Assembly (NCBI GenBank): GCA_021372715.1
Contig: JAJFTX010000045.1
Coordinates: 1-59,784 of the forward strand
Reading direction: 5' to 3'
From: Methanobacterium sp.
GTDB lineage: Archaea; Methanobacteriota; Methanobacteria; Methanobacteriales; Methanobacteriaceae
DNA: 59,784 nt
In this document: piece by piece, positions 32,562 to 59,784 of the stretch
Layout: each line of letters starts with the position of its first letter
How positions within the stretch are numbered: the stretch's first letter is position 1
Translations under genes and position numbers: made by a program
Notes under the pieces: generated by a model
What the model was told of the DNA's origin: nothing
Seen by the model: only the letters and a program-made list of their open reading frames with translations
Database searches by the model: none

Positions 32562-33533
32562 TTAATTTGGTGGTTTATTATTTTCCTGTTCTTCTTCCAG
32601 TATGTGCAACATTTTATGATAGTTTTCCTCACCTAATTCGTGCAAAAGCCGGTGATGGAGTTGATTTTTAATCAGATGTAAAAGATTATGAAAAGATTTT
32701 TCTCCAATAGCATGTAATATCTCATGAAAGGCATCTTCAACGGTTAATTTAACTTTACATTGCACTCCATTCTTTTTAAGTAGATATAAAAGTTCTGCTG
32801 ATTTCGGTGACTTTAGATGGGCTTTTTTAAGTGTTTCGTAATCATTGAATATTTCCTCAGGAGTTCCCTGGCCAATGATCTCACCATCATGTAGAACGAA
32901 GATCTTATCAGCAAACTGGGTGACCATCTCCACATCGTGGGAGGCGATGATGATGCTCATATCCTCCCGATTTAGCATGTATAGTATTTCCATGACTTGT
33001 TCAACACCCTTGGGATCCAGGCCGGTGGTAGGCTCATCTAAAACCATGATCTCCGGACGCATGGCCAGAATACCTGCAATGGCAACTCTTTTTCTCTGCC
33101 CACCGCTGAGGTGATGTGGGGCTTTTTTTTCAAGTCCACTCATCCCCACCATTTTTAGGGCTTCCTCCACCCTTTCATCAACTTCATCATCAGAGAGGCC
33201 TAAATTCATAGGCCCGAATGCTACATCTTCAATCACGGTAGGTGCAAATAACTGATCATCCGGGTTTTGAAAAACAATACCTACTTTTTGTCTGATTTGG
33301 AGTAGTTCCTTTTTTTTATAAACTGCTGCTTCACCATCAATTTTTATCAGGCCGGAAGTGGGCTGGTTTATACCATTGAAATGTGCAAAAAGGGTTGATT
33401 TACCTGCACCATTGGATCCGATAATGGCTACTCTTTCACCTTCTTTTATTTCAATATTGATATCGCGAAGGGCTGAGGTGCCGTCTGGATAGGTGAAGCT
33501 CATATTTTCGGTTTTAATAATTGTTCTTACCAT
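32562..33533 (-). CDS. cbiO: ECF transporter ATPase component CbiO/NikO with an unusual histidine-repeat C-terminal tail
   Basis: Walker [22 protein letters not shown] signature, Walker B MVLDEPT. Extra ~55-aa tail with four HxxLH-type repeats. Confidence 0.9.
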
Positions 33534-33592
33534 AAATTTTCCTCATAGGTTTCTTTTATGCACATTTTCATCCCGCATTAAAAACTATTTTT

Positions 33593-34423
33593 TTATCCGA
33601 TGCGAATTCCCAAAAATCCATAATGTTCAAACAATAACATAGCTCCAATCTGCAGGCATGCTACCAAAGCTATAGTTACTATAATAAAAGTATACTCTCT
33701 AGACCCGATTTTCCTTTTTTTATCATGATAAAGATTTGATTCATCAGAAAATCCCCGGCTGGCCATACTCAGGTAAATAGTTTCTCCATGTTCATAGGCC
33801 CGCAGAAACATCATGCCCACAGTGTATCCTAACTGTCTCATCCGCCATTTATATGGAAGTTCTTTATTAAAGGCATCAAAACATCTTGCTTTCTGAGCTT
33901 GGGATATGCGGTGCAGTTCATCATAGAACATAAATAGGAACCTGATCATGAGACTAAAAATCATAGCAATCTCACGAGGCATACCCAACTTCCGGAATGA
34001 CTGCACAACTTCTTGCATGGGACTTATTGAAGATAAAAGCACGATAGAAGTAAGGGACACTATTAGACGGGACACTAAAAGCGCAGCCCACATTAATCCC
34101 TCGTAGGTGATCTGCAAACCGAAAGCACCGGACCAGATTACAGTACCGGGATGTATGAAAGGCTGAAATAATATTATTAAACCACCAAAGGGTAGAAGTA
34201 AAAGAACTCTGGTTACAGTGGTTTTAAAAGATACATTGGATATCCAAATAAGCATTAAAAGGTAGATCTCCAGGAAAATCATTACCATTATCTGAGTTGA
34301 AAAAACAGCATACACAATGATGAATATCAATATAATTAGCTTTATTCTCCCATCCATAGAATGAAGCGAACTTTCCTTACTGGTCTCTCTTTCAAGATCT
34401 ATTACTGAGCCTGTTCTATTCAT
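33593..34423 (-). CDS. cbiQ: ECF transporter transmembrane (T) component CbiQ
   Basis: Polytopic protein with the conserved ARxxR-type coupling helices (AQKARCFD, ASRGF). Positioned between the cbiN-like gene and cbiO. Confidence 0.85.
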   Translation of the reverse strand: MNRTGSVIDLERETSKESSLHSMDGRIKLIILIFIIVYAVFSTQIMVMIFLEIYLLMLIWISNVSFKTTVTRVLLLLPFGGLIILFQPFIHPGTVIWSGAFGLQITYEGLMWAALLVSRLIVSLTSIVLLSSISPMQEVVQSFRKLGMPREIAMIFSLMIRFLFMFYDELHRISQAQKARCFDAFNKELPYKWRMRQLGYTVGMMFLRAYEHGETIYLSMASRGFSDESNLYHDKKRKIGSREYTFIIVTIALVACLQIGAMLLFEHYGFLGIRIG

Positions 34424-34505
34424 ATATTTCACAATGATTTTAATGATTCAAATTTACTTTAAAAATATTCAAGTGTAATAAAACAAATAAAAAAAAATAA
34501 AGAAG

Positions 34506-34805
34506 TTATTTAGAGGCTTCTGGTGGGCGTCTTCTTTTAAATAACTCAGCAACTCCATAGGCTATTAACAAAGTTATGATTATGCCCAGAGCAAGCGCTG
34601 CTATTTGTCCAATTGCTTCCAAACCTTCAATAGAGTAGTCAGGGAAGGGTGATTGGAGAACAGGTTCTGTTTCGGCTACGTTTAGGTTTTCAGCTGATTT
34701 TTCCAAACCATCCGGGTCTGGGGATGCTAAAAATGGAGACATCACAGCTATCACCAGGCAGATGATCACCCCTCCAATAACAAAGTATTTATCCTTGGTG
34801 CTCAT
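34506..34805 (-). CDS. PDGLE-domain small membrane protein (CbiN/NikN-like ECF accessory component)
   Basis: 99 aa, two transmembrane helices, [10 protein letters not shown] motif. The start overlaps the cbiM stop. Confidence 0.8.
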
Positions 34806-35476
34806 TTGGCTGTCACCTCACTTTGTTCGGGTTTTATTTCCTCTAAATTTTTATTCCGGTTCCAGGCAAGCAGATCGGGTCTAATTTTCTCCAACACATA
34901 TATTACGACTACTGTTAACACGGCTTCTATGATACCAATGAATGCGTGGTATATTCCCATCATTGCCAGTCCTTCAACTAGTGGGAAAGTACCGGCAAAA
35001 GCCATTTCTAAAGCAGTTGCTAAAGCTGCCAGGAAGATAGATAACCATGCGGCAACGCCTATCGCAGGATATTTCCCAATGGATTTTCTCAGGCCTTTGA
35101 ATGTGTAAAGCCCTACAACACCAGCTATAATACCCATATTAAGTACGTTAGCACCCAATGCTGTGATTCCTCCATCTCCGAAGAATAACCCTTGTACCAA
35201 AAGTACAATGGTAAATACTATAATCGCTGCTTCCGGGGCGCAGAATACAATGGCTACTAAAGCTCCACCTACCATGTGCCCACTGGTACCGAATGGAATA
35301 GGCATGTTCATGGACATTATGGCAAATATACCTGCGGCTAAAACTGCCATCAAAGGAACCATTTTTTCATCAAGATTCTTCCTTGCCCAATTTAGGGAGA
35401 AGTACAATGCAACTATTAAAATAACATAGTATATAGCGCACTGCCACAATGGAATAAAACCATCTGGTATATGCAT
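34802..35476 (-). CDS. cbiM: ECF transporter substrate-capture component CbiM/NikM (Ni2+/Co2+)
   Basis: Begins with MHIPDGF, the metal-coordinating N-terminus of CbiM/NikM. Seven-TM-type hydrophobicity. Strong AAAGGAGG ribosome-binding site. Confidence 0.92.
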
Positions 35477-35522: not shown

Positions 35523-35531
35523 AGTATTACT
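35523..35531. promoter_or_regulatory. AGTAWTACT palindrome copy 2 (cbiM promoter, between TATA box and probable transcription start)
   Basis: On the minus strand reads TTTATAAGTTAGTAATACTTAAAT, about 45-55 nt upstream of the cbiM ATG. Confidence 0.4.
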
Positions 35532-35633: not shown

Positions 35634-35642
35634 AGTATTACT
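35634..35642. promoter_or_regulatory. AGTAWTACT palindrome copy 3 (distal cbiM upstream region)
   Basis: Exact AGTATTACT, 10 nt from a CTTTATATTA TATA-like box on the minus strand. Confidence 0.35.
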
Positions 35643-35814: not shown

Positions 35815-36204
35815 TTAAACAGTTCTACCTAGTTGCACCACCTCAAATTCATCCATATCCACACTGCCTATAGTACGTAGACATTCATCACTGGGTAAAC
35901 TCTCCAATTCGTTAATATTCATGTCTTTTTCTTTTTTTAGACCTCTCATAAAATATTTAAAATCTGGTCCTAATTCATCCTTTATCCAATAACCCCTGCC
36001 AAGGTGTTTAAGTTCATCTTGGTTGAATTCTATAGTTAATTCTTTTATTTTGCCTAACAACTTAGCTGATGGTTGTTTATAGGTTCCCATCTCCAGTGCA
36101 GTATATATGTAGAAAGGAATTTCCAGTTTTCTGGCTAATTCTCTTTGTGTGGTGTGTGTATGTTTTCGGTATCCTAAAATCAGATATTTTAAATCATCTT
36201 CCAT
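35815..36204 (-). CDS. XRE-family helix-turn-helix transcriptional regulator
   Basis: 129 aa. N-terminal HTH (TQRELARKLEIPFYIYTALEMG). GGAGG ribosome-binding site. Surrounded by AGTAWTACT palindromes. Confidence 0.7.
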   Translation of the reverse strand: MEDDLKYLILGYRKHTHTTQRELARKLEIPFYIYTALEMGTYKQPSAKLLGKIKELTIEFNQDELKHLGRGYWIKDELGPDFKYFMRGLKKEKDMNINELESLPSDECLRTIGSVDMDEFEVVQLGRTV

Positions 36205-36273: not shown

Positions 36274-36282
36274 AGTATTACT
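36274..36282. promoter_or_regulatory. AGTAWTACT palindrome copy 4 (upstream of the XRE regulator gene)
   Basis: Exact AGTATTACT, 70 nt upstream of the XRE regulator ATG and next to TATA-like sequences. Confidence 0.4.
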
Positions 36283-36454: not shown

Positions 36455-36463
36455 AGTAATACT
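36455..36463. promoter_or_regulatory. AGTAWTACT palindrome copy 5 (MFS transporter promoter, directly upstream of TTTTTATAG)
   Basis: AATTAGTAATACTTTTTTATAG. 17 of 18 nt match copy 6 at 50815-50832 (the two differ only at the central W). Confidence 0.4.
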
Positions 36464-36523: not shown

Positions 36524-37876
36524 ATGTTTAACAATTTAAGGACCAGAATTTTAGCAGTTATTTTTGCCGGGGCTATATTAATAGCTATAGATGGTTCTAC
36601 CATCAGTCCAATATTGGAATCGATACAAAAATCATTCGGAGTGAATGAAAGTGTCATAACTTGGATATTTAACATGGAAATCCTTTTCTTGTTATTGGCT
36701 ACACCTATAATGGCTAAACTATCTGATAAATATGGCCGAAAAAATATTTATATCTTAAACGCTGCTTTATTCTTACTGGGAACATTGATTGTTGCATTTT
36801 CCCCTTCTTTTGAAATATTACTTATAGGAAGAGCATTACAAGGTGTCGGTGCTGTTTTATCAGTATTAGCCATCACTATCATCGGAGATTACTTCGATGA
36901 AACCCGTGGTACTATATTAGGAGCTTTTGGAGTTATAATCGCCCTGGTTTATGCCTTAGGTCCAGCTATATCTGGTTTCCTGGTAGGTTTCGGTTGGCAC
37001 TGGGTTTTCATAATTAACATTCCGGTGGCTGCTATAGTGGTTCTTCTGGGATATTCCCTTCTACCTGAAAGCAAAACCAGTGAAAAATACGCCAGTTTTG
37101 ACTGGAAAGGGATGACCTTCCTGGCAATAGCCATAGCATCCATTGCCTATTTCATATTCAACCTCTCAGGAGAAGTAGCAGCAACCACCCAATACGTTGT
37201 GCTTGGAATTTTCATCCTGGCATTAATTGCATTCTGGTGGATTGAAAGAAAAGCCATAGAACCCATTTTACCCATCGGGCTTTTAAAAGGAAGAGATACT
37301 CTTATAGCCAGCGTGGTGACTCTGGTGGGTTATCTAGCCATGGCTGGAACCTATTACTTTTCTACATACGCTTCCATGGCTTTCAGTCTCAGTTACTCCA
37401 CAGCAGCCTACATGATACTGCCTATGACCATTGCCTCCCTTATAACCACTCCGGTTGTGGGTAAGCTACTGGATAAATTGGGAGCCAAACCAATAATGGT
37501 TTTTGGTGGGGCTCTAACGGCTGTAGGAATGCTAATTTTGAGTTATACCTCAAACATATACTTATTCGCATTTTCTTTAGTGCTCATCGGTATTGGTAAC
37601 GCATCCATTGTGGGTAACGCTCTTTACTATATCTTCCTGGATGAAACTGGTAAATCTGAAAGAGCATCTGGCCAGGCCCTCCTGAACATTCTCCTGAACA
37701 CTGGTTCACTTTTAGGAGGGGCAATTTTAGCCTCAGCCCTGGACTTCACCGCTTCTGGTGCTGCTTCTTTCCGCAATGTTTATCTTTATCTGGCTGTGAC
37801 TTACGTTATCCTGACCATTCTATCTCTGGGACTTAAAGGTAGAATTCTGGGAAGTAAAAGGCCAGTTGAAGGATAA
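36524..37876 (+). CDS. MFS transporter (drug:H+ antiporter-like, probably 12-14 TM)
   Basis: Motif A-like LSDKYGRKNIY, with repeated transmembrane helices throughout. Confidence 0.85.
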   Translation: MFNNLRTRILAVIFAGAILIAIDGSTISPILESIQKSFGVNESVITWIFNMEILFLLLATPIMAKLSDKYGRKNIYILNAALFLLGTLIVAFSPSFEILLIGRALQGVGAVLSVLAITIIGDYFDETRGTILGAFGVIIALVYALGPAISGFLVGFGWHWVFIINIPVAAIVVLLGYSLLPESKTSEKYASFDWKGMTFLAIAIASIAYFIFNLSGEVAATTQYVVLGIFILALIAFWWIERKAIEPILPIGLLKGRDTLIASVVTLVGYLAMAGTYYFSTYASMAFSLSYSTAAYMILPMTIASLITTPVVGKLLDKLGAKPIMVFGGALTAVGMLILSYTSNIYLFAFSLVLIGIGNASIVGNALYYIFLDETGKSERASGQALLNILLNTGSLLGGAILASALDFTASGAASFRNVYLYLAVTYVILTILSLGLKGRILGSKRPVEG

Positions 37877-37962: not shown

Positions 37963-38481
37963 ATGAATAAAGTAATAATAACCGTTTTAATCATAATTTT
38001 AGCGATAGTGGGAATTTCAGGCTGCACAGAACAAACACCTGAAAATAAAACCTATTCTGCAGATGGAATTACTTTTCAGTACCCTGGAAACTGGACAGAA
38101 CTTAATAAAACTAAATATAATTCTATAGATTTGGGAAATAAAAGTGAAGCAATATTTGTTTTAGGTGATGATCAAAATCAGTCTCGTCTGACATTTGGAA
38201 AAATTACCCCTGGCCAAGGTGAATTTTTAAATTCTTTAGCAGTCTGGGCCGAACAAACCAAGTCAAAATCATCTTCCAATGATTTAAAATTTTTATCTGA
38301 AAAAAATTTAACCATAGCTGGAGTTGATGCTTATCAACTAAGATTCATAAATACAGATGGCGACTATATCACATCCATTGCATTAATAAAGAATAACACA
38401 GGCTATGTAATGGTTTATAGGAGCATTTTCAAGGAAACAGAAACACTTGAAAGTATATTAAAAAGTTTCCAAATGCCATAA
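37963..38481 (+). CDS. Putative secreted lipoprotein of unknown function
   Basis: Signal sequence ending in the lipobox-like ISGC. No further recognisable motif. Confidence 0.5.
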   Translation: MNKVIITVLIIILAIVGISGCTEQTPENKTYSADGITFQYPGNWTELNKTKYNSIDLGNKSEAIFVLGDDQNQSRLTFGKITPGQGEFLNSLAVWAEQTKSKSSSNDLKFLSEKNLTIAGVDAYQLRFINTDGDYITSIALIKNNTGYVMVYRSIFKETETLESILKSFQMP

Positions 38482-38589: not shown

Positions 38590-39303
38590 TTAAGCCACAG
38601 TCACCTTCTGATACTGGGGGTTTTCACTGATCATTTTAAGATAATCATCAAAAGAAGAAAACCAGGATACCTGAACTTCATATAAGTAATCCTCCGCAAT
38701 TTTTTTGGCCTTCAACATCTCCTCCCTGGTTGGTGACCTCCATGATGTACCGGGCACTGGGATATAACCAGTAATATGATAATGAATATTAGGATCAATA
38801 TCTGCAATGAATCTGGCAATCTCTTCAATTTCATCATAATCCACCTGCCCAGGAATGTAAACACTACTAGCATCAACCATGATTCCCATTTGGTGGGCTT
38901 TTTGGAAGTTTTGAAGCACTGGTTTATTGGACATTCCAGTGTATTTGATATAAAAATCTTCAGATAAACTCTTAATACTCACCGAAATAGCATCAATATT
39001 TTTAGGTGGGAGGTTATAACCATTTGAATGCCCTATCTTGGTATAGATGCCTAAATTGTTTTTTGCAAAATCAGCCACTTCATATAATAGAGGATAAGTG
39101 GATGACTCTCCCCCTACAAAATGAACCCTTTCTATATCCAGTTCACTTAGAACCTCTTTGATCTTTTTAAGATCCAAGAATTTATTCGGTACTGTTTGGT
39201 TCCCAAGTTTGTAAGAACACCAGGTGCAATTAAAATTACAGCCATAGTTGTGGAGGTTAGCCCGTTTAAATTCTTCACAATAAGTTATTTTGTATATTGC
39301 CAT
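38590..39303 (-). CDS. Radical SAM protein (small, activase-like), divergent from nikR
   Basis: CNFNCTWC = Cx3Cx2C near the N-terminus, GGE motif (VGGESS). 237 aa. Confidence 0.8.
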   Translation of the reverse strand: MAIYKITYCEEFKRANLHNYGCNFNCTWCSYKLGNQTVPNKFLDLKKIKEVLSELDIERVHFVGGESSTYPLLYEVADFAKNNLGIYTKIGHSNGYNLPPKNIDAISVSIKSLSEDFYIKYTGMSNKPVLQNFQKAHQMGIMVDASSVYIPGQVDYDEIEEIARFIADIDPNIHYHITGYIPVPGTSWRSPTREEMLKAKKIAEDYLYEVQVSWFSSFDDYLKMISENPQYQKVTVA

Positions 39304-39331: not shown

Positions 39332-39386
39332 GATCCTGGAAATAATTAAATAATAGTAGGTAGCACCTTTTCCAGGATCGTGCTAC
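39332..39386. promoter_or_regulatory. Interleaved inverted repeats in the radical SAM / nikR divergent promoter (candidate NikR operator)
   Basis: GATCCTGGAAA (39332-39342) pairs with TTTCCAGGATC (39369-39379). GTAGCAC (39360-39366) pairs with GTGCTAC (39380-39386) across a 13-bp spacer. A third GGTAGCAC copy lies at 39437-39444. Confidence 0.4.
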
Positions 39387-39486
39387 TTATATTGGTTGTG
39401 GTATAAATGTTTTACGATAGCAAACTTTTTAATGATGGTAGCACTATGAAAATATAAATATCAAAGTTAAACATCTGAGGTTAAAT

Positions 39487-39894
39487 ATGACGGTGGAAAG
39501 AGTAGGAGTATCCTTTGAACCAGAACTACTAGAAAAATTCGATGATCTACTTAAAAAAAAAGGCTATACCAACCGATCAGAGGCTATCCGGGATCTGGTT
39601 CGAAAATCAATCATTGAAGCACACATTGAAAGTGAAGATGAAGATGTCATCGGAACGTTGACCATAATCTACGATCATGATGTGGGAGATGTTACCAACG
39701 AACTTCAGCACTATCAACACTTCCATCTAAGCGAGATAATTTCCACCACCCATGTTCACATTGCAAAATACAACTGCCTAGAGGTTTTAGTGTTAAGGGG
39801 TAAAGCAAAAAGCGTCAGAAAACTAGCAGACCATATCCGAGCCATAAAAGGCGTGAAACATGGAGAACTAGTAACCACCAAATCAACAATTTAA
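39487..39894 (+). CDS. nikR: Nickel-responsive transcriptional regulator NikR
   Basis: N-terminal ribbon-helix-helix (RVGVSFEPELLEKFD...GYTNRSEAIRDLVR) and a C-terminal ACT-like domain with the HxHx5C nickel site (THVHIAKYNC). Confidence 0.92.
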   Translation: MTVERVGVSFEPELLEKFDDLLKKKGYTNRSEAIRDLVRKSIIEAHIESEDEDVIGTLTIIYDHDVGDVTNELQHYQHFHLSEIISTTHVHIAKYNCLEVLVLRGKAKSVRKLADHIRAIKGVKHGELVTTKSTI

Positions 39895-39921: not shown

Positions 39922-40230
39922 TTGGATATTTTTGATGAAATTGATTTTTTAGAAAATCAATTCAAGGATATGGAATTTCAAGATCTTATGGATGACCCAG
40001 TATTGCAGAGAGCTTGTCTAAAAAGCCTAGAAATTATTGGTGAAGCCGTTAAAAATATTTCTGATAACTTTAAAAGTGAAACCCCCGAAATTGAATGGAG
40101 AAAAATAGCAGGATTAAGAGATAAATTAATCCATCACTATTTTGGCGTAGATTGGGAAATAGTTTGGAATGTAATTAACAATAAGATTCCGGGAATTAAA
40201 GAGCATCTAAACACCATAAAACATATTTAA
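39922..40230 (+). CDS. HepT-like (DUF86) ribonuclease toxin domain protein, with no MNT partner nearby
   Basis: Rx4HxY active-site motif RDKLIHHY and LEIIGEA motif. Only a TTG start is available. Reading frame is continuous with nikR apart from the nikR TAA stop. Confidence 0.7.
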   Translation: MDIFDEIDFLENQFKDMEFQDLMDDPVLQRACLKSLEIIGEAVKNISDNFKSETPEIEWRKIAGLRDKLIHHYFGVDWEIVWNVINNKIPGIKEHLNTIKHI

Positions 40231-48217: not shown

Positions 48218-48288
48218 TATATTCACTTCCTTCAATAAGAAAATCGTTTCTAAATAAATAAATTTAATTCAATCACATTTAATTTAAG

Positions 48289-49881: not shown

Positions 49882-49905
49882 TAAAATCAGATTTTAGAAC
49901 TTTTT

Positions 49906-50547: not shown

Positions 50548-50649
50548 AGATTTATTGCCTCAGAGGGGGGAAATTTTTTTTCTTTTGCATAAAATTTTTC
50601 GATAAGTTAAACTAGAATGAAAACAACATAATAATTGATAGAAATTTTA

Positions 50650-50720
50650 GGGGGACATCTTAACAATCTAATGATACATTTGAGCGAAAATGTGATGATA
50701 TGGGTTGTATGATGTCCCCC
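50650..50720 (-). other. Perfect 10-bp inverted repeat (GGGGGACATC ... GATGTCCCCC, 51-nt loop) in the hcgD-hcgE spacer
   Basis: Read directly: 50650-50659 and 50711-50720 are exact reverse complements. G/C-rich arms in an AT-rich spacer. Confidence 0.5.
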
Positions 50721-50738
50721 AAATTTTCATCTATTTTC

Positions 50739-50819: not shown

Positions 50820-50828
50820 AGTATTACT
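50820..50828. promoter_or_regulatory. AGTAWTACT palindrome copy 6 (hcgD-hcgE spacer, next to the TATA boxes of a probable hcgEF promoter)
   Basis: Minus strand reads CTAAAAGTAATACTAATTTATAAAAAAGTATTTATATAAG. Confidence 0.4.
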
Positions 50829-50980: not shown

Positions 50981-51694
50981 TCATATTTTAACGGTCTTCC
51001 AGGGTGTTCCTTCATTGGTTAGAAGCGTTTCAACTCCAAATTCATTAATGAGTTCACCTAATTTTATTAACCCCGGAATTTCAGTTGCATAATGTGTGGC
51101 GTCAACCACACTAACCCCTAATTTCCTGGCAAACATAGCAGTTTGATGATTCAAGTCTCCGGATAAGAATAAATCCACGGGATAATCATGGGCTAATTTT
51201 ATATATTCAGGATTTTTTAAACCAAAACCCGAAACTATAGCCACTTTTTCGATTATTACTTGCGAATTGCAATTTATCATGTTAATATAATCAGTGGGTA
51301 GTGAATTAGAAACTCTATTAATTAAATCTTCAAAGGTGATTGATGTGGAACAGATCCTACCAATACCTGTTTCTACATCGAAAACATCCGTAACTCGCAG
51401 TTTTAAGCATTCAGCAAGGGCATCATTTGCCCCTCCTTTTACAATATCCCAGTGGGAGTGAATCACATAAACTGGGAATTCTGGTTCAAAGAGTGGGGGA
51501 TGATGGATGATTAACAGGTCAGCCCCTAATTTTGAGGGATCATAATTTGGTAAGAGGTCTAATGAAACCTGAACCTTGTTTACTTCCATTCTATCAGGAT
51601 CCAAATCACCTAAATATCCTATCTTATCATTTTTAAGGGCTAAATGAGGTGGAACTTTTTTCTCAATTAATTTGAAGAGTTTAGAGGCTAACAT
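50981..51694 (-). CDS. hcgD: HcgD, NIF3-family protein (iron-trafficking role in FeGP-cofactor biosynthesis)
   Basis: 237 aa. NIF3/GTP cyclohydrolase I type 2 family motifs (HHPP, ATHYATE). Overlaps the end of hcgC. Confidence 0.78.
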   Translation of the reverse strand: MLASKLFKLIEKKVPPHLALKNDKIGYLGDLDPDRMEVNKVQVSLDLLPNYDPSKLGADLLIIHHPPLFEPEFPVYVIHSHWDIVKGGANDALAECLKLRVTDVFDVETGIGRICSTSITFEDLINRVSNSLPTDYINMINCNSQVIIEKVAIVSGFGLKNPEYIKLAHDYPVDLFLSGDLNHQTAMFARKLGVSVVDATHYATEIPGLIKLGELINEFGVETLLTNEGTPWKTVKI

Positions 51695-52451
51695 TTTCTA
51701 CTTGGGAATCTAGTTTTTCCATATATTTATTTATTATTTCGTCACAGGAAAACGGTTCCAGGGTTGAAACTGTAATTGCAGGCTTTTTTAGAAGATCTAA
51801 AAATTTATCAACATTTTTTTCCTTAAATAATATGCCTTCATAGAATTCCATACCGGCCACCCCATATAGGGCTCCGGGGGTTTTTAAAGCATCTGTAAGG
51901 CTTTTACTTAAAATTTCCATGGTGATGGTCATGGTGCCAGATGTTTTAAAGTTCAGGCCATGAGTCCTTAAAATGCCTTTGTAATGAGCAGTTGCTGATT
52001 TCAGCCTATCCATTATGTTATTCTTTCCTTTTATCAGTTCATCACTCCCATCTGATGTGGGATCTTCCACTAAGAATATATTTGCATTAATAAGTTCGGC
52101 CATTTCTGGTGCTAAACCACCAAGACCAGTGGTGTCTATTACCAGATCAGCATCTTCGATTACCCTAATATCTTGGGAAAATTTAACATCCTTCCCTAAC
52201 ATATTTTCAAGATGAGGATAGATATCAACCAGGGTGACATTTGATGTCTTTTTTAACTCTTTGGAAAATCCTGAACCGGTGAGATAAGCGCCTACTATGA
52301 CGGTATTTTCAATATCAACATTTAATGACTTAATCCAAGTGGAAGTAGCATAGTATTTTTTTTTAATTATTTTATCCATCAGAGCTTTAACTTTTATCTG
52401 AGATGTGATGGTGAAGACTTCTGATGTAATTCCTTTCTGATAATTATTCAT
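51681..52451 (-). CDS. hcgC: HcgC, SAM-dependent pyridinol methyltransferase of FeGP-cofactor biosynthesis
   Basis: 256 aa, Rossmann-like. Position between hcgB and hcgD, with overlapping start/stop codons at both ends. Confidence 0.68.
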   Translation of the reverse strand: MNNYQKGITSEVFTITSQIKVKALMDKIIKKKYYATSTWIKSLNVDIENTVIVGAYLTGSGFSKELKKTSNVTLVDIYPHLENMLGKDVKFSQDIRVIEDADLVIDTTGLGGLAPEMAELINANIFLVEDPTSDGSDELIKGKNNIMDRLKSATAHYKGILRTHGLNFKTSGTMTITMEILSKSLTDALKTPGALYGVAGMEFYEGILFKEKNVDKFLDLLKKPAITVSTLEPFSCDEIINKYMEKLDSQVENVSL

Positions 52452-52951
52452 TTTATCATCTTTAACCCGATTCTATATAGGGCTTGTTTTGTTTCTTCAG
52501 CTACAGCTATTTTTAAATCTTTTCCATGCACCACATGGGAGGGTGAAGTGGTGGCGGTGAGTATTCTCCCCTTATAATCAATTATTACTAGCATGGAACC
52601 TGAGCCAGGAATACCCAGTCGGCCCCGAGCAAACACCACATCACATTCGCTTTGATCAAGTGCCATAATCGCCTTGTTAATTGCGGGCATTCGATTTAAA
52701 TCTGCGGTATTGGTGTTTATTGATAATTGTTCCGCTTCAGAAAGCCCGAATTTCTTAAATACCTGATTTATTATTTTTACCTTACTGCTATTTCTGGTGG
52801 GTATTATAATTTTTTTAGCAGATTTCAAATATTCCTGTATAAAACCTATCTCTTCTTCAGTATCGCCATTTCTAGTTCCATTGATGGATTGTTCATCGGC
52901 TTTTTTAATAATCTTTTCCAATTTCATTTTTTCCCTTGAATTAAAGTTCAA
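52448..52951 (-). CDS. hcgB: HcgB, pyridinol guanylyltransferase of FeGP-cofactor biosynthesis
   Basis: 167 aa. Size and position (directly after hcgA, overlapping hcgC) match the canonical hcgABC arrangement. Confidence 0.68.
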   Translation of the reverse strand: MNFNSREKMKLEKIIKKADEQSINGTRNGDTEEEIGFIQEYLKSAKKIIIPTRNSSKVKIINQVFKKFGLSEAEQLSINTNTADLNRMPAINKAIMALDQSECDVVFARGRLGIPGSGSMLVIIDYKGRILTATTSPSHVVHGKDLKIAVAEETKQALYRIGLKMIK

Positions 52952-53008
52952 TTATCCTTTAATTAATTCTAGTTCGATTATCCTATCTGATTGTAGTTTA
53001 ATTTCATC

Positions 53009-54031
53009 CTATGATTCTAGTTTAAGTCCCAGTTCATGAACTGCTCCAACAACATCTTTAAGATTCCCATAAGATGGAGATCCAACTCCTTTAACATCAG
53101 CAGGGTAATCTTCAGGAATTACTGTAGCTAAATTATCAGCTCCTGCAATTAATGAGTATTTAATATTTCTGGGTCCGATAGTAGGGGTGGGAACAGTTAT
53201 TCTTACTTGGGGGAACATCAATCTGGTTATGGCAATGGTTTTCACCTGTTCTGTTAGAGGACAGGGAGGGTGATCTTCCATAGGGGTGTTTTTATAGGGG
53301 TTGAATCCCATTATGGGAATTTCACCTAAATTTTGGAATTTTTTAAGAAATAGAAGATGATTAACCCGGTCCTGGTAAGACTCGCCTAAACCGATCAGTA
53401 ATCCTGATGAAAGTTCAATTCCCAGATTAGATATTTTTCTACAGATTTTAATTCTATCTTTAAGTTTTTCACCGGGTTTAAGTTCACAAAACAGATTTTT
53501 ATTTACAGTTTCTAAATTACAGCATATGGTATCAGTGTTATATTTATAAAGCTCTTTTAATGTGGTCATATTTAGATCTGCACCTACATTTACAAGAAGT
53601 TCCAGTGAGGTGTTTTCTTTAACAATTTTTGCAGCATTAACGGCTTGAAATCCATTATAACCATGTGCTCCTGAGCAACTTACCCGGGGGATGTCTGATT
53701 TTTCCACGCATTTAACTGCATCCAATATTTCCTGGTCTTCTTTAAAAAATGGATCATAGTATCCATCTAAAGAAGTTCTAGCTGCAAATCCACAGTATTT
53801 ACATTTAGGGGTAATTTGACAGATGTTGGTCAGGTGTACAGTTGAAGTGAGTTTAATAGTATTATTTTTAGAATTTCTTACCTGTGATGCGGTTTGTAAT
53901 AAATCCAGAAAATCATCTGCATATTTAATTTTAAATAATTGTAATAGATCATTTTTATCCAGTATAGGGTTCTTTTTAGCTTTTTTTAAGATATTTCTTA
54001 TCAATTTGACACCAGTAAAGATTTTTAGCAT
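53009..54031 (-). CDS. hcgA: HcgA, BioB/ThiH/HydE-like radical SAM enzyme of FeGP-cofactor biosynthesis
   Basis: 340 aa. Atypical Cx5Cx2C cluster motif CQITPKCKYC (nt 53792-53821), which is the HcgA hallmark. Immediately downstream of hmd. Confidence 0.85.
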   Translation of the reverse strand: MLKIFTGVKLIRNILKKAKKNPILDKNDLLQLFKIKYADDFLDLLQTASQVRNSKNNTIKLTSTVHLTNICQITPKCKYCGFAARTSLDGYYDPFFKEDQEILDAVKCVEKSDIPRVSCSGAHGYNGFQAVNAAKIVKENTSLELLVNVGADLNMTTLKELYKYNTDTICCNLETVNKNLFCELKPGEKLKDRIKICRKISNLGIELSSGLLIGLGESYQDRVNHLLFLKKFQNLGEIPIMGFNPYKNTPMEDHPPCPLTEQVKTIAITRLMFPQVRITVPTPTIGPRNIKYSLIAGADNLATVIPEDYPADVKGVGSPSYGNLKDVVGAVHELGLKLES

Positions 54032-54085: not shown

Positions 54086-55141
54086 TTATATATTGCAGGT
54101 GGGGCCTTTTCCTTTCCTCGTTTCCAGTACTTCTAAGACTGATGGGAGCATATCTGCAGCCGCCCCAAAGTTCATGGAATCTGCTGTTCCTAGCAGGGCT
54201 CCTGGGTCTAGTTTTTCTTCCATATGGTCAATTCCCACATTATTCATCAGATCTGTTACCTGTGATAGTGATTCTTTCGCCATCATCTGGGCGAAACCTG
54301 CTGGAGCTCCTAAAACATTCATAACAGAGTCTCGGTAGCGGAGTATTCCTGCATATGTTATTGCAGTCAGTGCAGAGCACATATCACAGACAGGACCTAG
54401 TAATTCAGCGGGTAATTTGTAGGCGTTTCCCCGAGCTGCAACACCCCAATCCACCAGGTTACATATGGCATCTTCGGAGGCGTAACCTTCGGCAACATAT
54501 ACTTGTCCCTTCATTTCAGGTACTGCACCGGGATGATAAGATGAGACATTGAATTTTGGTGCAATATTCATCTCATCACTGCTGATGTCCTCAAATATTT
54601 TCTGGAACATGGTGGTGGGTACTGTACATGCATGGGTTAAAATAGCACCTTCTTTAAGGTTGTCGGCAAATTTTTCGATTATACCTAACTGCATGTCGCC
54701 TTTGGGTAACCAGGTCATTACCCAATCAGCATCCTGAACAGCTTCGTTATCATCGGTGGTGATTTCGAAACCTAAATCTTCAGGGTGGGTGAAATGAATT
54801 GCACCTTCTGGTGGTTTAGGAAGGTCTTTAGCCACTGTATTGACTTTTTCTCGGATCTGTGGCATTATGCTTTCCGGGTTATCTTTATGGGCTTCAATCA
54901 CTGCCTCATATTCAAAATCGTCTATGACTTTAAAGTCATTGTCGAATGAAGGGTCAGCTACTACAATTTCATCCACTCCGGCTAATTCTTTCAATTCTGC
55001 ACCCATTGTAATGGTGGAATGGGTCATAGCTATTTCTGGTTTACCTACTTGTTCTGCTACTTCACAGGCTCGGCTGAAGTTGGTTATCCCACTGGCTGCG
55101 TGAGTACGATAACATCCAGCGCCTAATATTGCAAGTTTCAT
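54086..55141 (-). CDS. hmd: [Fe]-hydrogenase, H2-forming methylenetetrahydromethanopterin dehydrogenase
   Basis: MKLAILGAGCYRTHAASGITNFSRACE N-terminus and the iron-ligating Cys context THACTVP. Start at 55141 with a GGAGTGAT ribosome-binding site. The track start at 55162 (GTG) includes that site. Confidence 0.93.
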   Translation of the reverse strand: MKLAILGAGCYRTHAASGITNFSRACEVAEQVGKPEIAMTHSTITMGAELKELAGVDEIVVADPSFDNDFKVIDDFEYEAVIEAHKDNPESIMPQIREKVNTVAKDLPKPPEGAIHFTHPEDLGFEITTDDNEAVQDADWVMTWLPKGDMQLGIIEKFADNLKEGAILTHACTVPTTMFQKIFEDISSDEMNIAPKFNVSSYHPGAVPEMKGQVYVAEGYASEDAICNLVDWGVAARGNAYKLPAELLGPVCDMCSALTAITYAGILRYRDSVMNVLGAPAGFAQMMAKESLSQVTDLMNNVGIDHMEEKLDPGALLGTADSMNFGAAADMLPSVLEVLETRKGKGPTCNI

Positions 55142-55167: not shown

Positions 55168-55176
55168 AGTAATACT
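55168..55176. promoter_or_regulatory. AGTAWTACT palindrome copy 7 (hmd promoter/leader, 27-35 nt upstream of the ATG)
   Basis: Part of the 14-mer AGTAATACTACTTA (55168-55181), identical to 55687-55700. Confidence 0.45.
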
Positions 55177-55686
55177 ACTTATTTATTTTGTAGTACAAAA
55201 TTTAGATGATCAAAATGTAATATAAATGTTTTGATTGATATTACTATTTGGCATATAAATTAAAAAAATGTAATAAAGTGCAGAATAAAATAAAAACATA
55301 GTAAAAAGAAGTAAATAAAAATATTTATTCATTCTATCTTTTAATAATTAAATAAAACTCAATATTTACGGATAAAATTCATTAATAAAATGTATATCAC
55401 TAATATAAATAACAAAAGTAATAATTTATATAAAAGTAATATTATTTTTTTTCCTGAACAAATTATTATATAACTATTATTAAACCTCCTTTTCTGTTAT
55501 TCTCTTTTTATAACATCTTTGAGCATATTAGTTCATTATTAACTATTTAAAAAATAGGGGATATAAGGGGGTTTTAATCATCAAAAGCACATTTAATTCT
55601 TTAAATATGGTATTTTCCTGATATTTGCTTATTTAAATTTGTAAAAAAAGTTTTAAAGAGGTTTTATTTATCCAAACGTTTATTAC

Positions 55687-55695
55687 AGTAATACT
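55687..55695. promoter_or_regulatory. AGTAWTACT palindrome copy 8 (promoter of the 55728 / fdh-like operon)
   Basis: Overlaps a second perfect palindrome TATTACAGTAATA (55681-55693) and follows a TTTATTA TATA-like box. 33-41 nt upstream of the ATG. Confidence 0.45.
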
Positions 55696-55727
55696 ACTTA
55701 AGGATTTATTAATCATCTGGAGGTAAT

Positions 55728-56114
55728 ATGAATATGGTAATTAATAATACAAATTTGAATGTTTATATAGGTGAAATAAAGATGATTAGGCCGGGAATTC
55801 CTTTTGGAACGGGTGTGCACAATTTAAATGTTGATTGGAATATTGAATACACAAAAAAAGAGGATGAAATCATCGAATATATCTGCACAATTACCACAAT
55901 AGGTGATATACCGATTAAATTTGCCATTCATGGCTATTTAGATAGTGAAAATCCTGTAAAAAATATAGAAGAAAGATATAATGAAATATCACCTCTGATC
56001 CTTGACCGGTGTACCGAAACAATGATCAATATATTAAATTCAACCAAAACCACTACAGTAACCATTAAAACAGTTCCAGAGGTTTATTTAAGCTGTGTTT
56101 CTGGAGAATTATGA
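55728..56114 (+). CDS. Hypothetical protein (128 aa), first gene of the fdh-like operon
   Basis: GGAGGT ribosome-binding site 4 nt before the ATG. No recognisable motif. Confidence 0.5.
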   Translation: MNMVINNTNLNVYIGEIKMIRPGIPFGTGVHNLNVDWNIEYTKKEDEIIEYICTITTIGDIPIKFAIHGYLDSENPVKNIEERYNEISPLILDRCTETMINILNSTKTTTVTIKTVPEVYLSCVSGEL

Positions 56115-56186
56115 ATATTATACAATTAAGAAAAGAATATAAAGACTTTAATTCTTTTTTTAAAAAAATATGAAGGTGTATAAAAT

Positions 56187-57290
56187 ATGATGAAAGTTGC
56201 CCATAGCATCTGCCCGTCCTGTAGTGTGGGATGTGGTGTGAACCTGATAATTAAAGACAACGAAGCAGTAGGGACCTACCCCTATAAAAGACATCCTGTA
56301 AATGAAGGAAAAACCTGTAGAAAGGGACGTGAATGTTTTAAAATAATGACAGAAAACCGTTTGAAGGAACCTCTCATAAAAGAAGATGGACTTAAACTTT
56401 CTAATTGGGAAGATGCCCTAGACACCGTGGCTTCTCAAATTAAATCCTATCCTTCCCATGAAATAGGGATTCTCGTCTCCGGGAATTATACCAACCAGGA
56501 ATATGAAACCTTAAAGAAATTCGCTGATGCTCTGGGAATCCGAAATATCGGATGCCATACCGGAAGTGTTCCATCATCTAATCTGGAGACAGTTGCCCTT
56601 GATGATGTGGAGAAATCTGAATTTATACTGATCATAGGGGATGTCATAAAGAAATATCCGCTTCTGGGTAGGAGGGTTATACTGGCCCAGGAAAATGGTG
56701 CAGAAATACTTGCAGTTGATGAGCCCGATAAAACCCTGACTGGAATAAACTCCCAAGAGTACATTCAAGTTGAATCCGCATCATCAATAATAGATGAAGT
56801 TGATGATATAATCCTGGAGAAGTTAAGTCCACAGTCAACAGTTTTAATTAGCAATTTAGAAAGTGAAGATGATTTTGAAAAAATCGTAAAATTCTTCGAA
56901 CAGTCCGATGCGAAGATCATCCCTGTTTTCCAGGATTGTAACAGCAGAGGAGCTGTGAATATTCTACCTGTTTTAAGTTCAGATGATATGAAAGGCATGC
57001 TTGAAAGGGTAAAATTATTGTATATTCTGGGTGATGATCCAGCCCCTCATATGATGGAATCCATAAAAAACCTTGATTTTATAATTAGCCAGGGCTATCT
57101 AATTAATAAAACCACCTCAATCTCTGACGTGGTACTTCCCGGCTCCTGCTGGGCTGAAAAAACAGGATCCTTTACTAATACCACTGGAGAGACACAGGAA
57201 ATTTCAAAAATAGTAGATGCCCCCGGTGCGGCTCTGGATGACCAGATAATAATTAAAAAGATTGCAGAGAAAATAGGACTTGATTTATAA
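56187..57290 (+). CDS. Molybdopterin-oxidoreductase (MopB) family protein, FdhA-like short form
   Basis: N-terminal CxxCxxxC...C 4Fe-4S motif (CPSCSVGCGV...C). 367 aa is about half the length of a catalytic FdhA, and the C-terminal MGD-capping domain is missing. Confidence 0.65.
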   Translation: MMKVAHSICPSCSVGCGVNLIIKDNEAVGTYPYKRHPVNEGKTCRKGRECFKIMTENRLKEPLIKEDGLKLSNWEDALDTVASQIKSYPSHEIGILVSGNYTNQEYETLKKFADALGIRNIGCHTGSVPSSNLETVALDDVEKSEFILIIGDVIKKYPLLGRRVILAQENGAEILAVDEPDKTLTGINSQEYIQVESASSIIDEVDDIILEKLSPQSTVLISNLESEDDFEKIVKFFEQSDAKIIPVFQDCNSRGAVNILPVLSSDDMKGMLERVKLLYILGDDPAPHMMESIKNLDFIISQGYLINKTTSISDVVLPGSCWAEKTGSFTNTTGETQEISKIVDAPGAALDDQIIIKKIAEKIGLDL

Positions 57291-57301
57291 GGTGATAAAA
57301 G

Positions 57302-58450
57302 ATGGAAACACAATTTTTACTAGCTAAAGCAAAAGATAAAGAACTAGCTAAAAGGGGTGAATGTGGGGGTGCTATAAGTGCTTTATTTAAATATCTGTTA
57401 GATCAGGGTTTGGTTGATGGTGTTTTAAATTTAAGACAGGGAGTTGACATATACGACGGTATCCCCACTCTGGTTGAAGATTCAGAGGATCTTATGGAAA
57501 CATGCGGCTCCCTCCACTGCGCACCGACCATGTTCGGTGACCTGATAAGTAATTATTTAAGTGACATGCGATTAGCGGTTAGCGTGAAACCCTGCGATGC
57601 CATGGCCATTAGGGAACTGGAAAAAAGGCATCAGATTAATGAAGACAACCTTTTCAAAATAGGTCTCAACTGTGGGGGGGTGGTAATGCCCCTAATCGCC
57701 CAGAAAATGATAGATATTTTTTACGAAGTCGATCCTGATGATGTAGTTAAGGAGGAAATCGATAAGGGAAAGTTTATAATTAAACTTAAAGACGGGTCCC
57801 ATAAATCCGTGGAAATCGATGAACTGGAGGATCAAGGATTCGGAAGACGTATTAACTGCCAGAGATGTGAGTTAAAGGTACCACGAAATGCTGATCTGGC
57901 CGGGGGTAACTGGGGTGCTGAACCAGGATGGACCTTCATAGAAGTACTTACAGACAAAGGTAAAAAACTCGTGAAGGACGCTAAAAAAAGCGGATATATA
58001 GAAGTTAAAATCCCTTCAGAGAAGGCCATAGGTATGAGAGAGAAGATTGAAAATGTTATGATAAAATTAGCCCATAAATTCCAGGATAAATATCTGGAGG
58101 AAAATTATCCTGATACTGAAAACTGGGATGAATACTGGAACCGGTGCATCAAATGTTATGCCTGCCGGGATGCCTGTGCCTTATGTTTCTGTAAGGAGTG
58201 CGATCTTGAAAAAGACTTTTACAACGATGAAAATGAAGTGGTGCCGGATCCCCTTACTTTTCAGGGAATAAGGATGTCCCATGCATGTTTCAGTTGCGTT
58301 AATTGTGGTCAGTGCGAAGATGTGTGTCCCATGGAAATTCCATTGGCTGTTATTTTCCACAAGATGCAGAAAAGATACAGAGATAAAACTGGCTTCATAG
58401 CAGGTGTAAGTGAAGAGTTGCCACCGCTATACAGTCCGGAAAAAAGTTAA
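57302..58450 (+). CDS. FdhB/FrhB family protein (coenzyme F420 hydrogenase/dehydrogenase beta subunit-like) with two C-terminal [4Fe-4S] motifs
   Basis: N-terminal GECGGAISALFKYLL and the FrhB core. CIKCYACRDAC and CVNCGQCEDVCP ferredoxin motifs. Confidence 0.78.
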   Translation: METQFLLAKAKDKELAKRGECGGAISALFKYLLDQGLVDGVLNLRQGVDIYDGIPTLVEDSEDLMETCGSLHCAPTMFGDLISNYLSDMRLAVSVKPCDAMAIRELEKRHQINEDNLFKIGLNCGGVVMPLIAQKMIDIFYEVDPDDVVKEEIDKGKFIIKLKDGSHKSVEIDELEDQGFGRRINCQRCELKVPRNADLAGGNWGAEPGWTFIEVLTDKGKKLVKDAKKSGYIEVKIPSEKAIGMREKIENVMIKLAHKFQDKYLEENYPDTENWDEYWNRCIKCYACRDACALCFCKECDLEKDFYNDENEVVPDPLTFQGIRMSHACFSCVNCGQCEDVCPMEIPLAVIFHKMQKRYRDKTGFIAGVSEELPPLYSPEKS

Positions 58451-58482
58451 ATAACAGGCAAGTATGAGGAAAGAGGAAATTA

Positions 58483-58944
58483 ATGGTGAAAGAAATGTCT
58501 GATGAAAAAACAAAAATATTGGGATTCTGTTGCAACTGGTGTTGCTATGGAGGTGCAGATACTGCGGGCACTGCCCGTATGCAGTACCCTCCAAATGTTA
58601 GAATTTTAAGAGTGATGTGTTCTGGTAGGATCAACCCATCGATGGTATTTAAAGCCTTTAAAGAAGGGGCTGACGGTGTTTTTGTGGGCGGTTGTCATAG
58701 GGGTGACTGTCATTACGATGCAGGTAACTATAAATGGAATAGAAGGGCTGAATTAATCAAGGATATTCTGCTTGAATTTGGAATCCCAGAAGAGAGGTTT
58801 AGATTTGAATGGATCTCAGCTTCTGAGGGTGAAAAATTCCAGAAAACCATGGAAGAGTTCACGAAAACCATAGAATCAATGGGTCCACTTCAAAGGACTT
58901 TTCCAATATGTTCGGTAAAGCAACAAGGAATTAAGGCCAAATAA
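58483..58944 (+). CDS. mvhD: MvhD-type hydrogenase iron-sulfur (delta) subunit
   Basis: 153 aa. [15 protein letters not shown]...RVMCSGR...GGCHxGDCHY is the MvhD/FlpD signature. Confidence 0.88.
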
Positions 58945-58989
58945 AATCGTTATTAAACTTTAAAATTTAACAGTACAGGGTGAAAATTT

Positions 58990-59784
58990 ATGAATATCAC
59001 TGTATATGGAGCTGGAAACCAGGAATTATACGTTAACCAGCTCCAATTACCAGAAAAATATGGTGGAAAACCTCCTTATGGGGGCTCTAGAATGGCTATA
59101 GAATATGCCCGTGCCGGACATGATGTTTATCTGGCTGAACCAGATTCAAATATCCTTAAAAAAACCACTGGAAGATTGTAGAGGATTCAGGGGTGACAGT
59201 CACAGAAGATGATGTGGAAGCAGCAAAAAATGCCGAAATAGCTGTTCTATTTACTCCTTTTGGTAAGAGAACCTTCAATATAGCTAAAGAAATCATATAT
59301 CATCTCCCGGATGGGGGAATAATCGCCAATACGTGTACGGTATCGCCTCTTGTATTGTACTATGTACTGGAAAAAGAAATCAGGAAAGACAGGAAAGACA
59401 TAGGTATTGCTTCCCTACACCTGGCTACAGTTCCAGGAACCCCTCAACACGGACATTATGTTATTGGAGGACGTTCCAGTAATGATAGAGACATAGCTAG
59501 TGAGGAACAAATTCAAAAATGCGTAAAACTAGCCCAAAGTTGTGGAAATGATGCCTATGTGGTCCCTGCTGATGTTTCATCGGCGGTGGCTGATATGGGT
59601 TCTCTTGTAACCGCAGTAACACTTTCCGGAGTGATTGATTACTATAATGTGGGTACGGAGATAATTAAAGCACCTAAAGAGATGGTAGAAAAACAGATAC
59701 TCATGACCCTGCAGACGGTGGCCTCTCTGGTGGAATCTTCTGGTGTAGAAGGAATGTTAAAGGCCATAAATCCAAATTTACTGG
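58990..59784 (+). pseudogene. hmdII: Hmd paralogue (HmdII/III type) interrupted by a frameshift in an A7 run; partial at the window end
   Basis: Frame 1 (MNITVYGAGNQELY...GGKPPYGG...AGHDV) stops at 59179-59181. The homologous sequence continues in another frame from 59163 (NHWKIVEDSGVTVTEDDVEAAK...NTCTVSP...) to the window end. One extra A in the run at 59158-59164 would restore the frame. Confidence 0.7.

Follow-up and report, generated by a model that had tools for sequence, protein, structure and literature searches.

We describe here a 59,784-nucleotide stretch of DNA from Methanobacterium sp. (GenBank assembly GCA_021372715.1, contig JAJFTX010000045.1, positions 1 to 59,784), called the window below, whose last 27 kb bring together genes for a nickel/cobalt importer, the nickel regulator NikR, the F430 nickelochelatase CfbA, an enzyme of the nicotianamine synthase (NAS) family, and the nickel-free [Fe]-hydrogenase Hmd with its cofactor genes hcgA-F and the elpXABC genes. 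We read this island as at least six transcription units of one nickel-responsive regulon that would be marked by a 9-bp palindrome, AGTAWTACT (the box), and put the probability of this reading at about 0.6. Comparison in silico supports co-regulation of the operons by nickel. A preliminary description of the stretch had proposed a functional island that manages nickel scarcity. That proposal is upheld by a neighbourhood that recurs in related genomes and by the common, operator-like palindrome, itself linked to nikR and nickel-transporter genes; the nikR within the window, however, is probably not its regulator.

The box was first noticed on reading the intergenic regions of the window, which holds eight exact copies against 0.79 expected; none of 100 shuffles reached eight. 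All eight copies are intergenic and seven lie inside the island. They are as follows, with the strand left unassigned except where given:

27053-27061, AGTAATACT box 37 bp upstream of the TctA gene, outside the coordinates covered by the preliminary description
35523-35531, AGTATTACT box between a TATA-like element and cbiM, 47 bp upstream of the gene start
35634-35642, another AGTATTACT box ahead of cbiM, at a distance of 111 bp from the preceding one (112 bp in locus L002)
36274-36282, AGTATTACT box in the divergent XRE/MFS promoter region
36455-36463, AGTAATACT box immediately before the TATA box of the MFS gene and 61 bp upstream of its start
50820-50828, AGTAATACT box, read on the minus strand, upstream of hcgE and followed by a conserved TATA box
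55168-55176, AGTAATACT box about 27 bp upstream of the hmd ATG
55687-55695, AGTAATACT box 33 bp upstream of elpX

The hcgE box and the TATA box that follows it are invariant in six genomes with diverged flanks. The hmd box forms GTAATAC-N14-GTAGTAC with positions 55191-55197, and a box occupies the same position at hmd in loci L015 and L016. For a wider comparison, 80 loci around NAS homologues were taken, one genome per species, and the window proteins were mapped onto them by tblastn. Over these loci and the window, 237 copies of the box are intergenic and 16 coding. When the intergenic stretches of the same set were shuffled, 6.2 copies were expected and 13 was the maximum, against 223 counted, and the exact 9-mer far outnumbers every one-mismatch variant, even the more AT-rich ones. 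The gene families found downstream of boxes are NAS (31 loci), GNAT (27), NikA-type SBP_bac_5 (15 loci), cbiM (11), XRE, hcgE, MFS, FmdE/His-rich, T2SSE and elpX (6 each), HcgG and a His-rich P-type ATPase (5 each), hmd (4), and also DUF2162. Orthologous promoters in Methanobacterium and Methanobrevibacter have kept the palindrome. NAS promoters in other genomes carry it 12-15 bp upstream of TTTATATTA; in Methanobrevibacter, arrays of boxes with a spacing of 32/29/32 bp stand on both sides of the TATA box in the GNAT-NAS interval; and in M. thermautotrophicus, one-mismatch boxes that keep the GTAWTAC core precede NAS, an FmdE-domain gene and a CobN gene.

Because the 80 loci had been chosen around NAS, a gene-blind scan was made of metagenomes for AGTAWTACT-N20-23-AGTAWTACT pairs. 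It returned 120 loci, and many of the matches are chance occurrences or satellite repeats, as expected for the size of the collection. In 8 of the 120 (7 independent), nikR starts within 100 bp of the pair; most of these contigs are high in G+C and have no relation to methanogens. In L096/L110, L156 and L179 the pair stands between divergent nikR and Pfam-confirmed NicO/NiCoT permease genes, and L135 is arranged alike, its divergent gene being recognised by a sequence signature only. In L105 and L145 nikR is the neighbour of the pair, and in L117 the pair separates nikR from a nikM-N fusion. On methanogen-like contigs it was found upstream of cbiMNQO, NAS/GNAT, SBP_bac_5 and 1700-aa CobN-domain (CobN1-family) genes. 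Such placements at nikR and nickel-uptake genes are the classic signature of a NikR operator. On that signature we tentatively assign the box to a protein of the NikR family and read AGTAWTACT as a putative NikR-type operator.

The genes of the island were called from an open reading frame (ORF) listing and from Pfam and NCBIfam scans of the window. Every gene named in the preliminary description was recovered in its place, but that account had left out 6.6 kb with a HepT gene and the gene of a 2035-aa DUF3344 protein. The features, with the models or matches behind most of the calls, are:

27098-28360, plus, TctA-family transporter gene, outside the island
32562-33533, minus, cbiO (Pfam ABC_tran, NCBIfam)
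33593-34432, minus, cbiQ (Pfam CbiQ, NCBIfam)
34506-34805, minus, PDGLE/CbiN-like gene (Pfam PDGLE, NCBIfam)
34802-35476, minus, cbiM (Pfam CbiM, NCBIfam)
35815-36204, minus, small helix-turn-helix (XRE-like) gene, a weak match (Pfam)
36524-37876, plus, DHA2-like efflux-type transporter of the major facilitator superfamily (MFS), candidate chelator exporter (Pfam, NCBIfam)
37963-38481, plus, lipoprotein gene, weak PsbP_2 match (Pfam)
38590-39303, minus, intact small radical SAM protein of 237 aa with CX3CX2C, divergent from nikR (Pfam, NCBIfam)
39360-39386, no strand, perfect dyad GTAGCAC-N13-GTGCTAC between nikR and the radical SAM gene, with NikR-box architecture
39487-39894, plus, nikR (RHH_1 and NikR_C)
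39922-40230, plus, HepT-like ribonuclease domain gene (Pfam)
40462-46569, minus, secreted surface protein of 2035 aa, DUF3344/PKD/SBBP/CHB_HEX_C/NosD beta-helix (Pfam)
47003-47710, minus, radical SAM pseudogene (at least two frameshifts relative to the intact L011 orthologue)
47789-48235, minus, cfbA, sirohydrochlorin nickelochelatase (NCBIfam)
48289-49092, minus, NAS, thermonicotianamine synthase orthologue (Pfam, NCBIfam, match to 3FPE)
49303-50547, minus, hcgF and hcgE (Pfam, NCBIfam)
50645-50725, minus, conserved RNA hairpin in the hcgE leader, stem GGGRCATC/GATGYCCC, invariant loop CGCTCAAATGT
50981-54031, minus, hcgD, hcgC, hcgB and hcgA (Pfam, NCBIfam)
54086-55141, minus, hmd, [Fe]-hydrogenase (Pfam; start re-read)
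55728-58944, plus, elpX (orf128), elpA (truncated FdhA-like), elpB (FdhB-like) and elpC (MvhD-like) (Pfam, PDB 8RVU)
58991-59784, plus, hmdII, running past the window end (-1 frameshift at A7)

The product of the window nikR carries the features of a NikR: it scores 181 bits with NCBIfam NF003381 (cut-off 105), matches Pfam RHH_1 and NikR_C, and has the nickel ligands H-V-H-x5-C, its HVHIAKYNC aligning with HVHINHDDC of E. coli and HVHMDEHNC of P. horikoshii. The dyad in its promoter is built like NikR signals, which are of the form 7-N13/14-7 (PMC545781). There is a third half-site at 39438-39444, and the half-sites are kept, with a different spacer, in L011 and L077, making three genomes with the window. 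This dyad does not occur at cbiM, and through it the local nikR would autoregulate itself and the adjacent radical SAM gene. Since it has a conserved autoregulatory dyad of its own, different in sequence from the box, we set the window nikR aside as island-wide regulator, a role that it probably does not have. A second NikR paralogue is encoded in L002, beside cfbA. The β-strand of the window NikR reads R-V-G-V-S and that of the NikRs beside paired boxes R-x-S-x-S; H. pylori and P. horikoshii NikR are also R-x-S-x-S, so that the strand alone does not define specificity and is a lead only.

The neighbourhood is conserved in related genomes, a check that the preliminary description had called for. 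Among 22 Methanobacterium-type loci, the genes within 10 kb of NAS include a divergent GNAT gene (19 of 22), cbiMNQO (14), cfbA (10), MFS and hcgF (7 each), a related radical SAM gene and an XRE-like gene (6 each), and nikR (3). Gene orders and orientations vary from genome to genome. The arrangement elpCBAX-hmd-hcgA-F-NAS-cbiOQNM fits into 16 kb in L015 and L016, hcgA-F-cbiOQNM-NAS is found in L005 and L079, and NAS paralogues directly follow cbiO-like genes in L009, L010 and L082. The lipoprotein gene adjoins NAS in L001, L002 and L033. In Methanobrevibacter, NAS is flanked by GNAT and by a NikABCDE/Opp-type importer (two SBP_bac_5, two permeases and two ATPases), and in M. thermautotrophicus it is followed by genes for a 962-aa FmdE-domain protein, a 1706-aa CobN-domain protein, DUF2162 and MotA/ExbB. 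The divergent GNAT-NAS pair, with boxes between, occurs in Methanobrevibacter and Methanothermobacter as well. The clustering is thus more than chance and recurs in related genomes, and NAS keeps company with whatever nickel-uptake genes a lineage has.

The right half of the island (hmd, hcg and elp) is a known nickel-limitation module whose induction has been measured in M. marburgensis. Under nickel limitation the M. marburgensis proteome shows rises of Hmd, ElpX/A/B/C, HcgG, CobN1 and NikR1, CobN1 being the protein most strongly induced, and Elp replaces the [NiFe] hydrogenase Mvh as the electron donor of Hdr in an F420H2-dependent manner (PMC12350162). The preliminary description had noted the rise of Hmd, which this proteome bears out, and had Hmd replacing a nickel-containing Frh/Mtd route; Hmd does replace Frh, but together with Mtd, which is not a nickel enzyme (PMC12350162). 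It had also named an FdhA-like/FdhB-like/MvhD operon. These genes are present (elpA-C, 56187-58944, plus), and their identity can be sharpened by matches to PDB 8RVU: the 367-aa ElpA aligns from end to end with chain 8RVU_D (342 aa) and is a truncated FdhA without the Mo-pterin-binding C-domain, ElpB matches 8RVU_E with an E value of 1e-192, and ElpC is a FlpD/MvhD protein. By these matches the operon, with orf128, is ElpXABC. The start of hmd was re-read as the ATG at 55141, which is preceded by an AGGAG ribosome-binding site. Methanothermobacter has an hmd-hcgA-F cluster, with hcgG located beyond the elp genes (PMC3087415). In the window, hmd and hcgA-F are present and no homologue of HcgG (Fibrillarin_2) was found, so that the "complete" [Fe]-hydrogenase system of the preliminary description is unproven; hcgG may lie beyond the 3' end. 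The hmdII gene is frameshifted and cut by the window end.

The hairpin in the hcgE leader shows compensatory A-U/G-C changes in its stem and has no Rfam match. With a covariance model it was also found upstream of hcgE/hcgF, XRE, cfbA, cbiM and MFS genes in other Methanobacterium loci, and may act as a cis-regulatory RNA within this regulon. An Rfam scan of the window returned no riboswitch or other known non-coding RNA family, cobalamin riboswitch included, and control of the island by such an RNA was set aside on that ground.

The importer is of the energy-coupling factor (ECF) nickel/cobalt type, with the M, N, Q and O components in one operon, cbiM-PDGLE-cbiQ-cbiO (32562-35476, minus). Its CbiM carries Met1, His2 and His67, as read from the translation, and in TtNikM2 these residues form a closed, square-planar Ni/Co site that excludes larger molecules (PMC3945884). 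With this closed site the importer would take the bare ion and not a chelate; judged by these residues, the ECF CbiM cannot import a metal-chelator complex. Both nickel and cobalt are bound by NikM and CbiM (PMC3945884). The NCBIfam models matched by the importer are named "cobalt transporter"; the context (nikR and the shared box) favours nickel. The CbiO protein has a His- and Leu-rich C-terminal extension of about 60 aa (32562-32800, minus), possibly a metal-sensing element on the ATPase.

The window NAS aligns with PDB 3FPE_A over residues 1-265, its full length (E 3.6e-90), and its Glu82 and Tyr108, invariant in the homologue alignment, correspond to the catalytic Glu81 and Tyr107 of MtNAS. 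The latter (MTH675, AAB85180.1; PDB 3FPE/3FPF/3O31, solved in 2009) is the thermonicotianamine synthase of M. thermautotrophicus, with catalytic Glu and Tyr (PMC10491745). By this alignment the window NAS is an orthologue of thermonicotianamine synthase, predicted to make thermonicotianamine from Glu and two S-adenosylmethionines. The statement that such a route was undescribed for methanogens is wrong for the enzyme, which had already been described in one. The nearest relatives of the window NAS are Methanobacterium proteins, at 89% identity or less. The cfbA gene follows NAS by 53 bp, and its product scores 148 bits with the F430_CfbA equivalog NF033198 (cut-off 120); small CbiX-type proteins score on both CbiX and CfbA models. 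The staphylopine-like route suggested earlier, made up of NAS, the MFS exporter and the ECF importer, is not supported in that form. The CntL equivalog gives the window NAS 48 bits against a cut-off of 350, and domain scans of all ORFs of at least 95 aa between 32.4 and 59.8 kb found neither a CntM opine dehydrogenase nor CntK. The binding site of the ECF CbiM is one for uncomplexed ions (PMC3945884). An Opp/Nik-type ABC importer of the CntABCDF type is absent from the window, where the MFS gene is present; such an importer adjoins NAS in Methanobrevibacter. The TctA transporter is another candidate transporter, since thermonicotianamine is a polycarboxylate and a box lies 37 bp upstream of the TctA gene.

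NAS is intact in M. thermautotrophicus and truncated in M. marburgensis Marburg (121 aa, D9PWQ6) and M. wolfeii (119-190 aa). Marburg grows at <50 nM nickel in spite of the truncated gene, which argues that thermonicotianamine is not essential for the Hmd/Elp switch. The 121-aa Marburg fragment D9PWQ6 is absent from the nickel-limitation proteome tables, and proteomic evidence for a nickel response of NAS was dropped for these reasons.

The mechanism that we propose runs as follows. When nickel is plentiful, a nickel-loaded repressor of the NikR family, probably a paralogue other than the window nikR, would sit on the boxes. At cbiM, hmd and elpX the box lies between a TATA-like element and the start codon, where it would cover the region of transcription start, and at the MFS gene and hcgE it abuts the transcription factor B recognition element (BRE)/TATA box; such positions at or near promoters fit repression. 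When nickel is scarce, the boxes would be vacated and all units induced together. Ni2+ would then be imported by the ECF NikMNQO-type pump; thermonicotianamine would be made and possibly exported by the MFS pump; more CfbA would be formed, so that F430 gets the nickel; electron flow would shift to nickel-free Hmd, supplied by the hcgA-F genes of its iron-guanylylpyridinol (FeGP) cofactor; and ElpABC would feed Hdr from F420H2. Both the GNAT gene, the divergent partner of NAS elsewhere, and the NAS-proximal box are missing at 49093-49302. With its own box lost, the NAS-cfbA pair would here depend wholly on read-through from hcgE for its regulation, and we infer such co-transcription with hcgEF.

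Several points weigh against a nickel regulon marked by the box. For this organism the reading rests on in-silico comparison. The 80 loci were chosen around NAS, which biases the list of box targets, and only the metagenome scan is unbiased. The paired boxes are 31-32 bp apart, compared with about 20-21 bp centre to centre in classical NikR boxes, and most boxes in the window are single. The proposed regulator lies outside the window, and the window NAS promoter is without the box that NAS promoters carry in other genomes. In Methanothermobacter the island genes are dispersed, and strain Marburg has a truncated NAS. Finally, CbiMNQO and CbiX-type chelatases can also serve cobalt.

It is distinctly unlikely, in our view, that the adjacency reflects only inherited synteny with local rearrangement, the operons being independent and merely neighbours. 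The gene order does differ in every genome, HepT and the 6-kb surface-protein gene interrupt the island, the PTH2-AAK-TctA-MTase-T2SSE-T2SSF flank, a conserved backbone, is found ahead of NAS in Methanobrevibacter too, and the NAS of M. thermautotrophicus (MTH675) is far from hmd (MTH1142, PMC3087415). Proximity to NAS is nevertheless kept through the shuffling by cbiMNQO and cfbA, NAS paralogues directly follow cbiO-like genes at three loci, and the units have in common a strongly enriched promoter palindrome. We also consider it unlikely, if less so, that the box is bound by a factor other than NikR, XRE-like or otherwise, perhaps one sensing H2, iron or growth phase. The promoter of the XRE-like gene is itself boxed, six loci have this gene together with NAS and cbiM, and the spacing of the paired boxes is atypical for NikR. 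However, all 52 members of the XRE-like family are from Methanobacterium, whereas the box is kept in Methanobrevibacter and pairs adjoin nikR on high-GC contigs; the XRE-like protein was rejected as the general binder for this reason, and the nikR-proximal pairs in the metagenome loci argue against any non-NikR factor.

That the left half of the island (cbiMNQO, the CbiX-type chelatase and NAS) serves cobalt or corrinoid supply and not nickel strikes us as very improbable. The names of the NCBIfam importer models, the double match of small CbiX proteins, and the binding of both ions by NikM and CbiM (PMC3945884) would allow it, but the chelatase passes the curated F430_CfbA cut-off, the box is also found ahead of hmd, elpX and hcgG and in the nikR-NicO interval, and the window has no cobalamin riboswitch. 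A different alternative leaves the regulon standing and makes thermonicotianamine an intracellular nickel buffer or chaperone that is not secreted and hands nickel to CfbA and other nickel enzymes, with the ECF pump importing free Ni2+ and the MFS pump moving another substrate. Plants use nicotianamine inside their cells, and the closeness of cfbA to NAS, both in the window and in the other Methanobacterium loci, fits this role, as does an ion-only ECF pump with the closed Met1/His2/His67 site (PMC3945884). Arguing the other way, NAS in Methanobrevibacter lies beside a NikABCDE/Opp-type importer with two binding proteins and the same boxes, which is the layout of the bacterial cnt operons, and the MFS efflux gene is boxed and co-occurs with NAS. 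An intracellular role is therefore possible, though we lean away from it.

A bolder extension of the nickel-regulon reading, which we put forward tentatively and hold to be doubtful as a whole, is that thermonicotianamine, an orphan metabolite since 2009, is the nickelophore of Methanobacteriales. It would be produced when nickel runs short, controlled by a NikR-type switch, and exported by the MFS pump, then taken up again as the nickel complex by the Nik/Opp-type ABC importer in Methanobrevibacter, or made to deliver nickel to the ECF NikMN pump and then to CfbA in Methanobacterium, with the same switch turning on Hmd and Elp. If so, AGTAWTACT would be the long-sought cis element behind the nickel regulation of hmd.

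The remaining observations concern neighbouring and interrupted genes. A YcaO-family gene (23438-24640, plus) lies upstream of the island, followed by the backbone of PTH2, amino-acid kinase, TctA, PrmA-like methyltransferase, T2SSE and T2SSF (24698-32417), which is syntenic with Methanobrevibacter (L081) and there runs straight into the divergent GNAT-NAS pair. T2SSE is boxed in six loci and is without a box in this window. The HepT gene directly follows nikR, no MNT antitoxin partner was recognised beside it, and it is probably unrelated to the nickel island. The gene of the DUF3344 protein has a G+C content of 0.44-0.45, against about 0.35 nearby; one-mismatch boxes lie upstream of it at 46612 and 46769, and very large DUF3344 proteins, of which some have CobN/Mg-chelatase domains, are encoded on the flanks of NAS in L010, L076 and L082. 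This protein may be part of nickel capture and not an unrelated insertion. The radical SAM gene at 47003-47710, rightly described earlier as a decayed paralogue, is broken, while the intact paralogue adjoins nikR; related genes stand directly after NAS in L009, L010, L011, L017, L079 and L082. In hmdII the frame is lost at an A7 run (59158-59164), and A8 would restore it; the break may be a real pseudogene, a slippage site or a sequencing error. Since three frameshifts are confined to these two genes and the other ORFs, including that of 2035 aa, are intact, real pseudogenes are favoured over assembly errors, though not proven.

Nickel limits methanogenesis in many habitats, and the DNA elements of nickel sensing and of the Hmd/Elp switch in hydrogenotrophic methanogens are not established. 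A box common to uptake, chelator, FeGP-cofactor, hmd and elp genes is a concrete candidate operator for NikR paralogues, thermonicotianamine synthase gains a first physiological context, and nickel scavenging by gut and rumen Methanobrevibacter may find an explanation. M. thermautotrophicus is genetically tractable. Every single component is already known. As far as the accessible literature shows, three points are new: thermonicotianamine synthase is repeatedly linked to cfbA and to genes of nickel uptake, one box is shared by the genes for uptake, chelator, cofactor and nickel-free bypass, and that box is tied to nikR. A search for the box sequence gave only primer-type matches in the accessible literature; an earlier mention of the box or of the NAS context is possible.

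Compared with known systems, the window NAS is like MtNAS in its full-length alignment and its catalytic Glu and Tyr, and unlike it in that the divergent GNAT partner of Methanothermobacter is absent. The staphylopine, pseudopaline and yersinopine cnt operons (CntKLM, CntABCDF and CntE) likewise join a NAS-family enzyme to an MFS efflux gene under metal control, which here is predicted, and Methanobrevibacter adds an adjacent Opp/Nik-type ABC importer. The window differs from them in having neither CntM nor CntK, in the low CntL score (48 of 350 bits) and in its ECF ion pump. With the nickel-limitation response of M. marburgensis the island shares orthologous hmd, hcgA-F and elpXABC, adjacent as in Methanothermobacter; it differs in holding the importer, nikR, cfbA and NAS as well, and in having a candidate cis element, none being reported for that response (PMC12350162). 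The NikR regulons of E. coli and the delta-proteobacteria differ from the proposed regulon in several ways: the island box is a 9-bp palindrome, single or in pairs 31-32 bp apart, the targets include FeGP-cofactor genes, Elp and a nicotianamine-type synthase, and the promoters are archaeal TATA/BRE promoters under a regulator that is only a candidate NikR-family protein. Those regulons also place nikR next to nickel transporters, as nikR lies near the nickel/cobalt ECF importer here, and they share with the island a 7-N13-7 dyad at nikR and boxes at transporter promoters. In Desulfovibrio, repression of a nickel-free hydrogenase isozyme by NikR has been predicted (PMC545781), and the logic that we propose for the island, in which nickel would repress both its own uptake and the nickel-free bypass, is the same.

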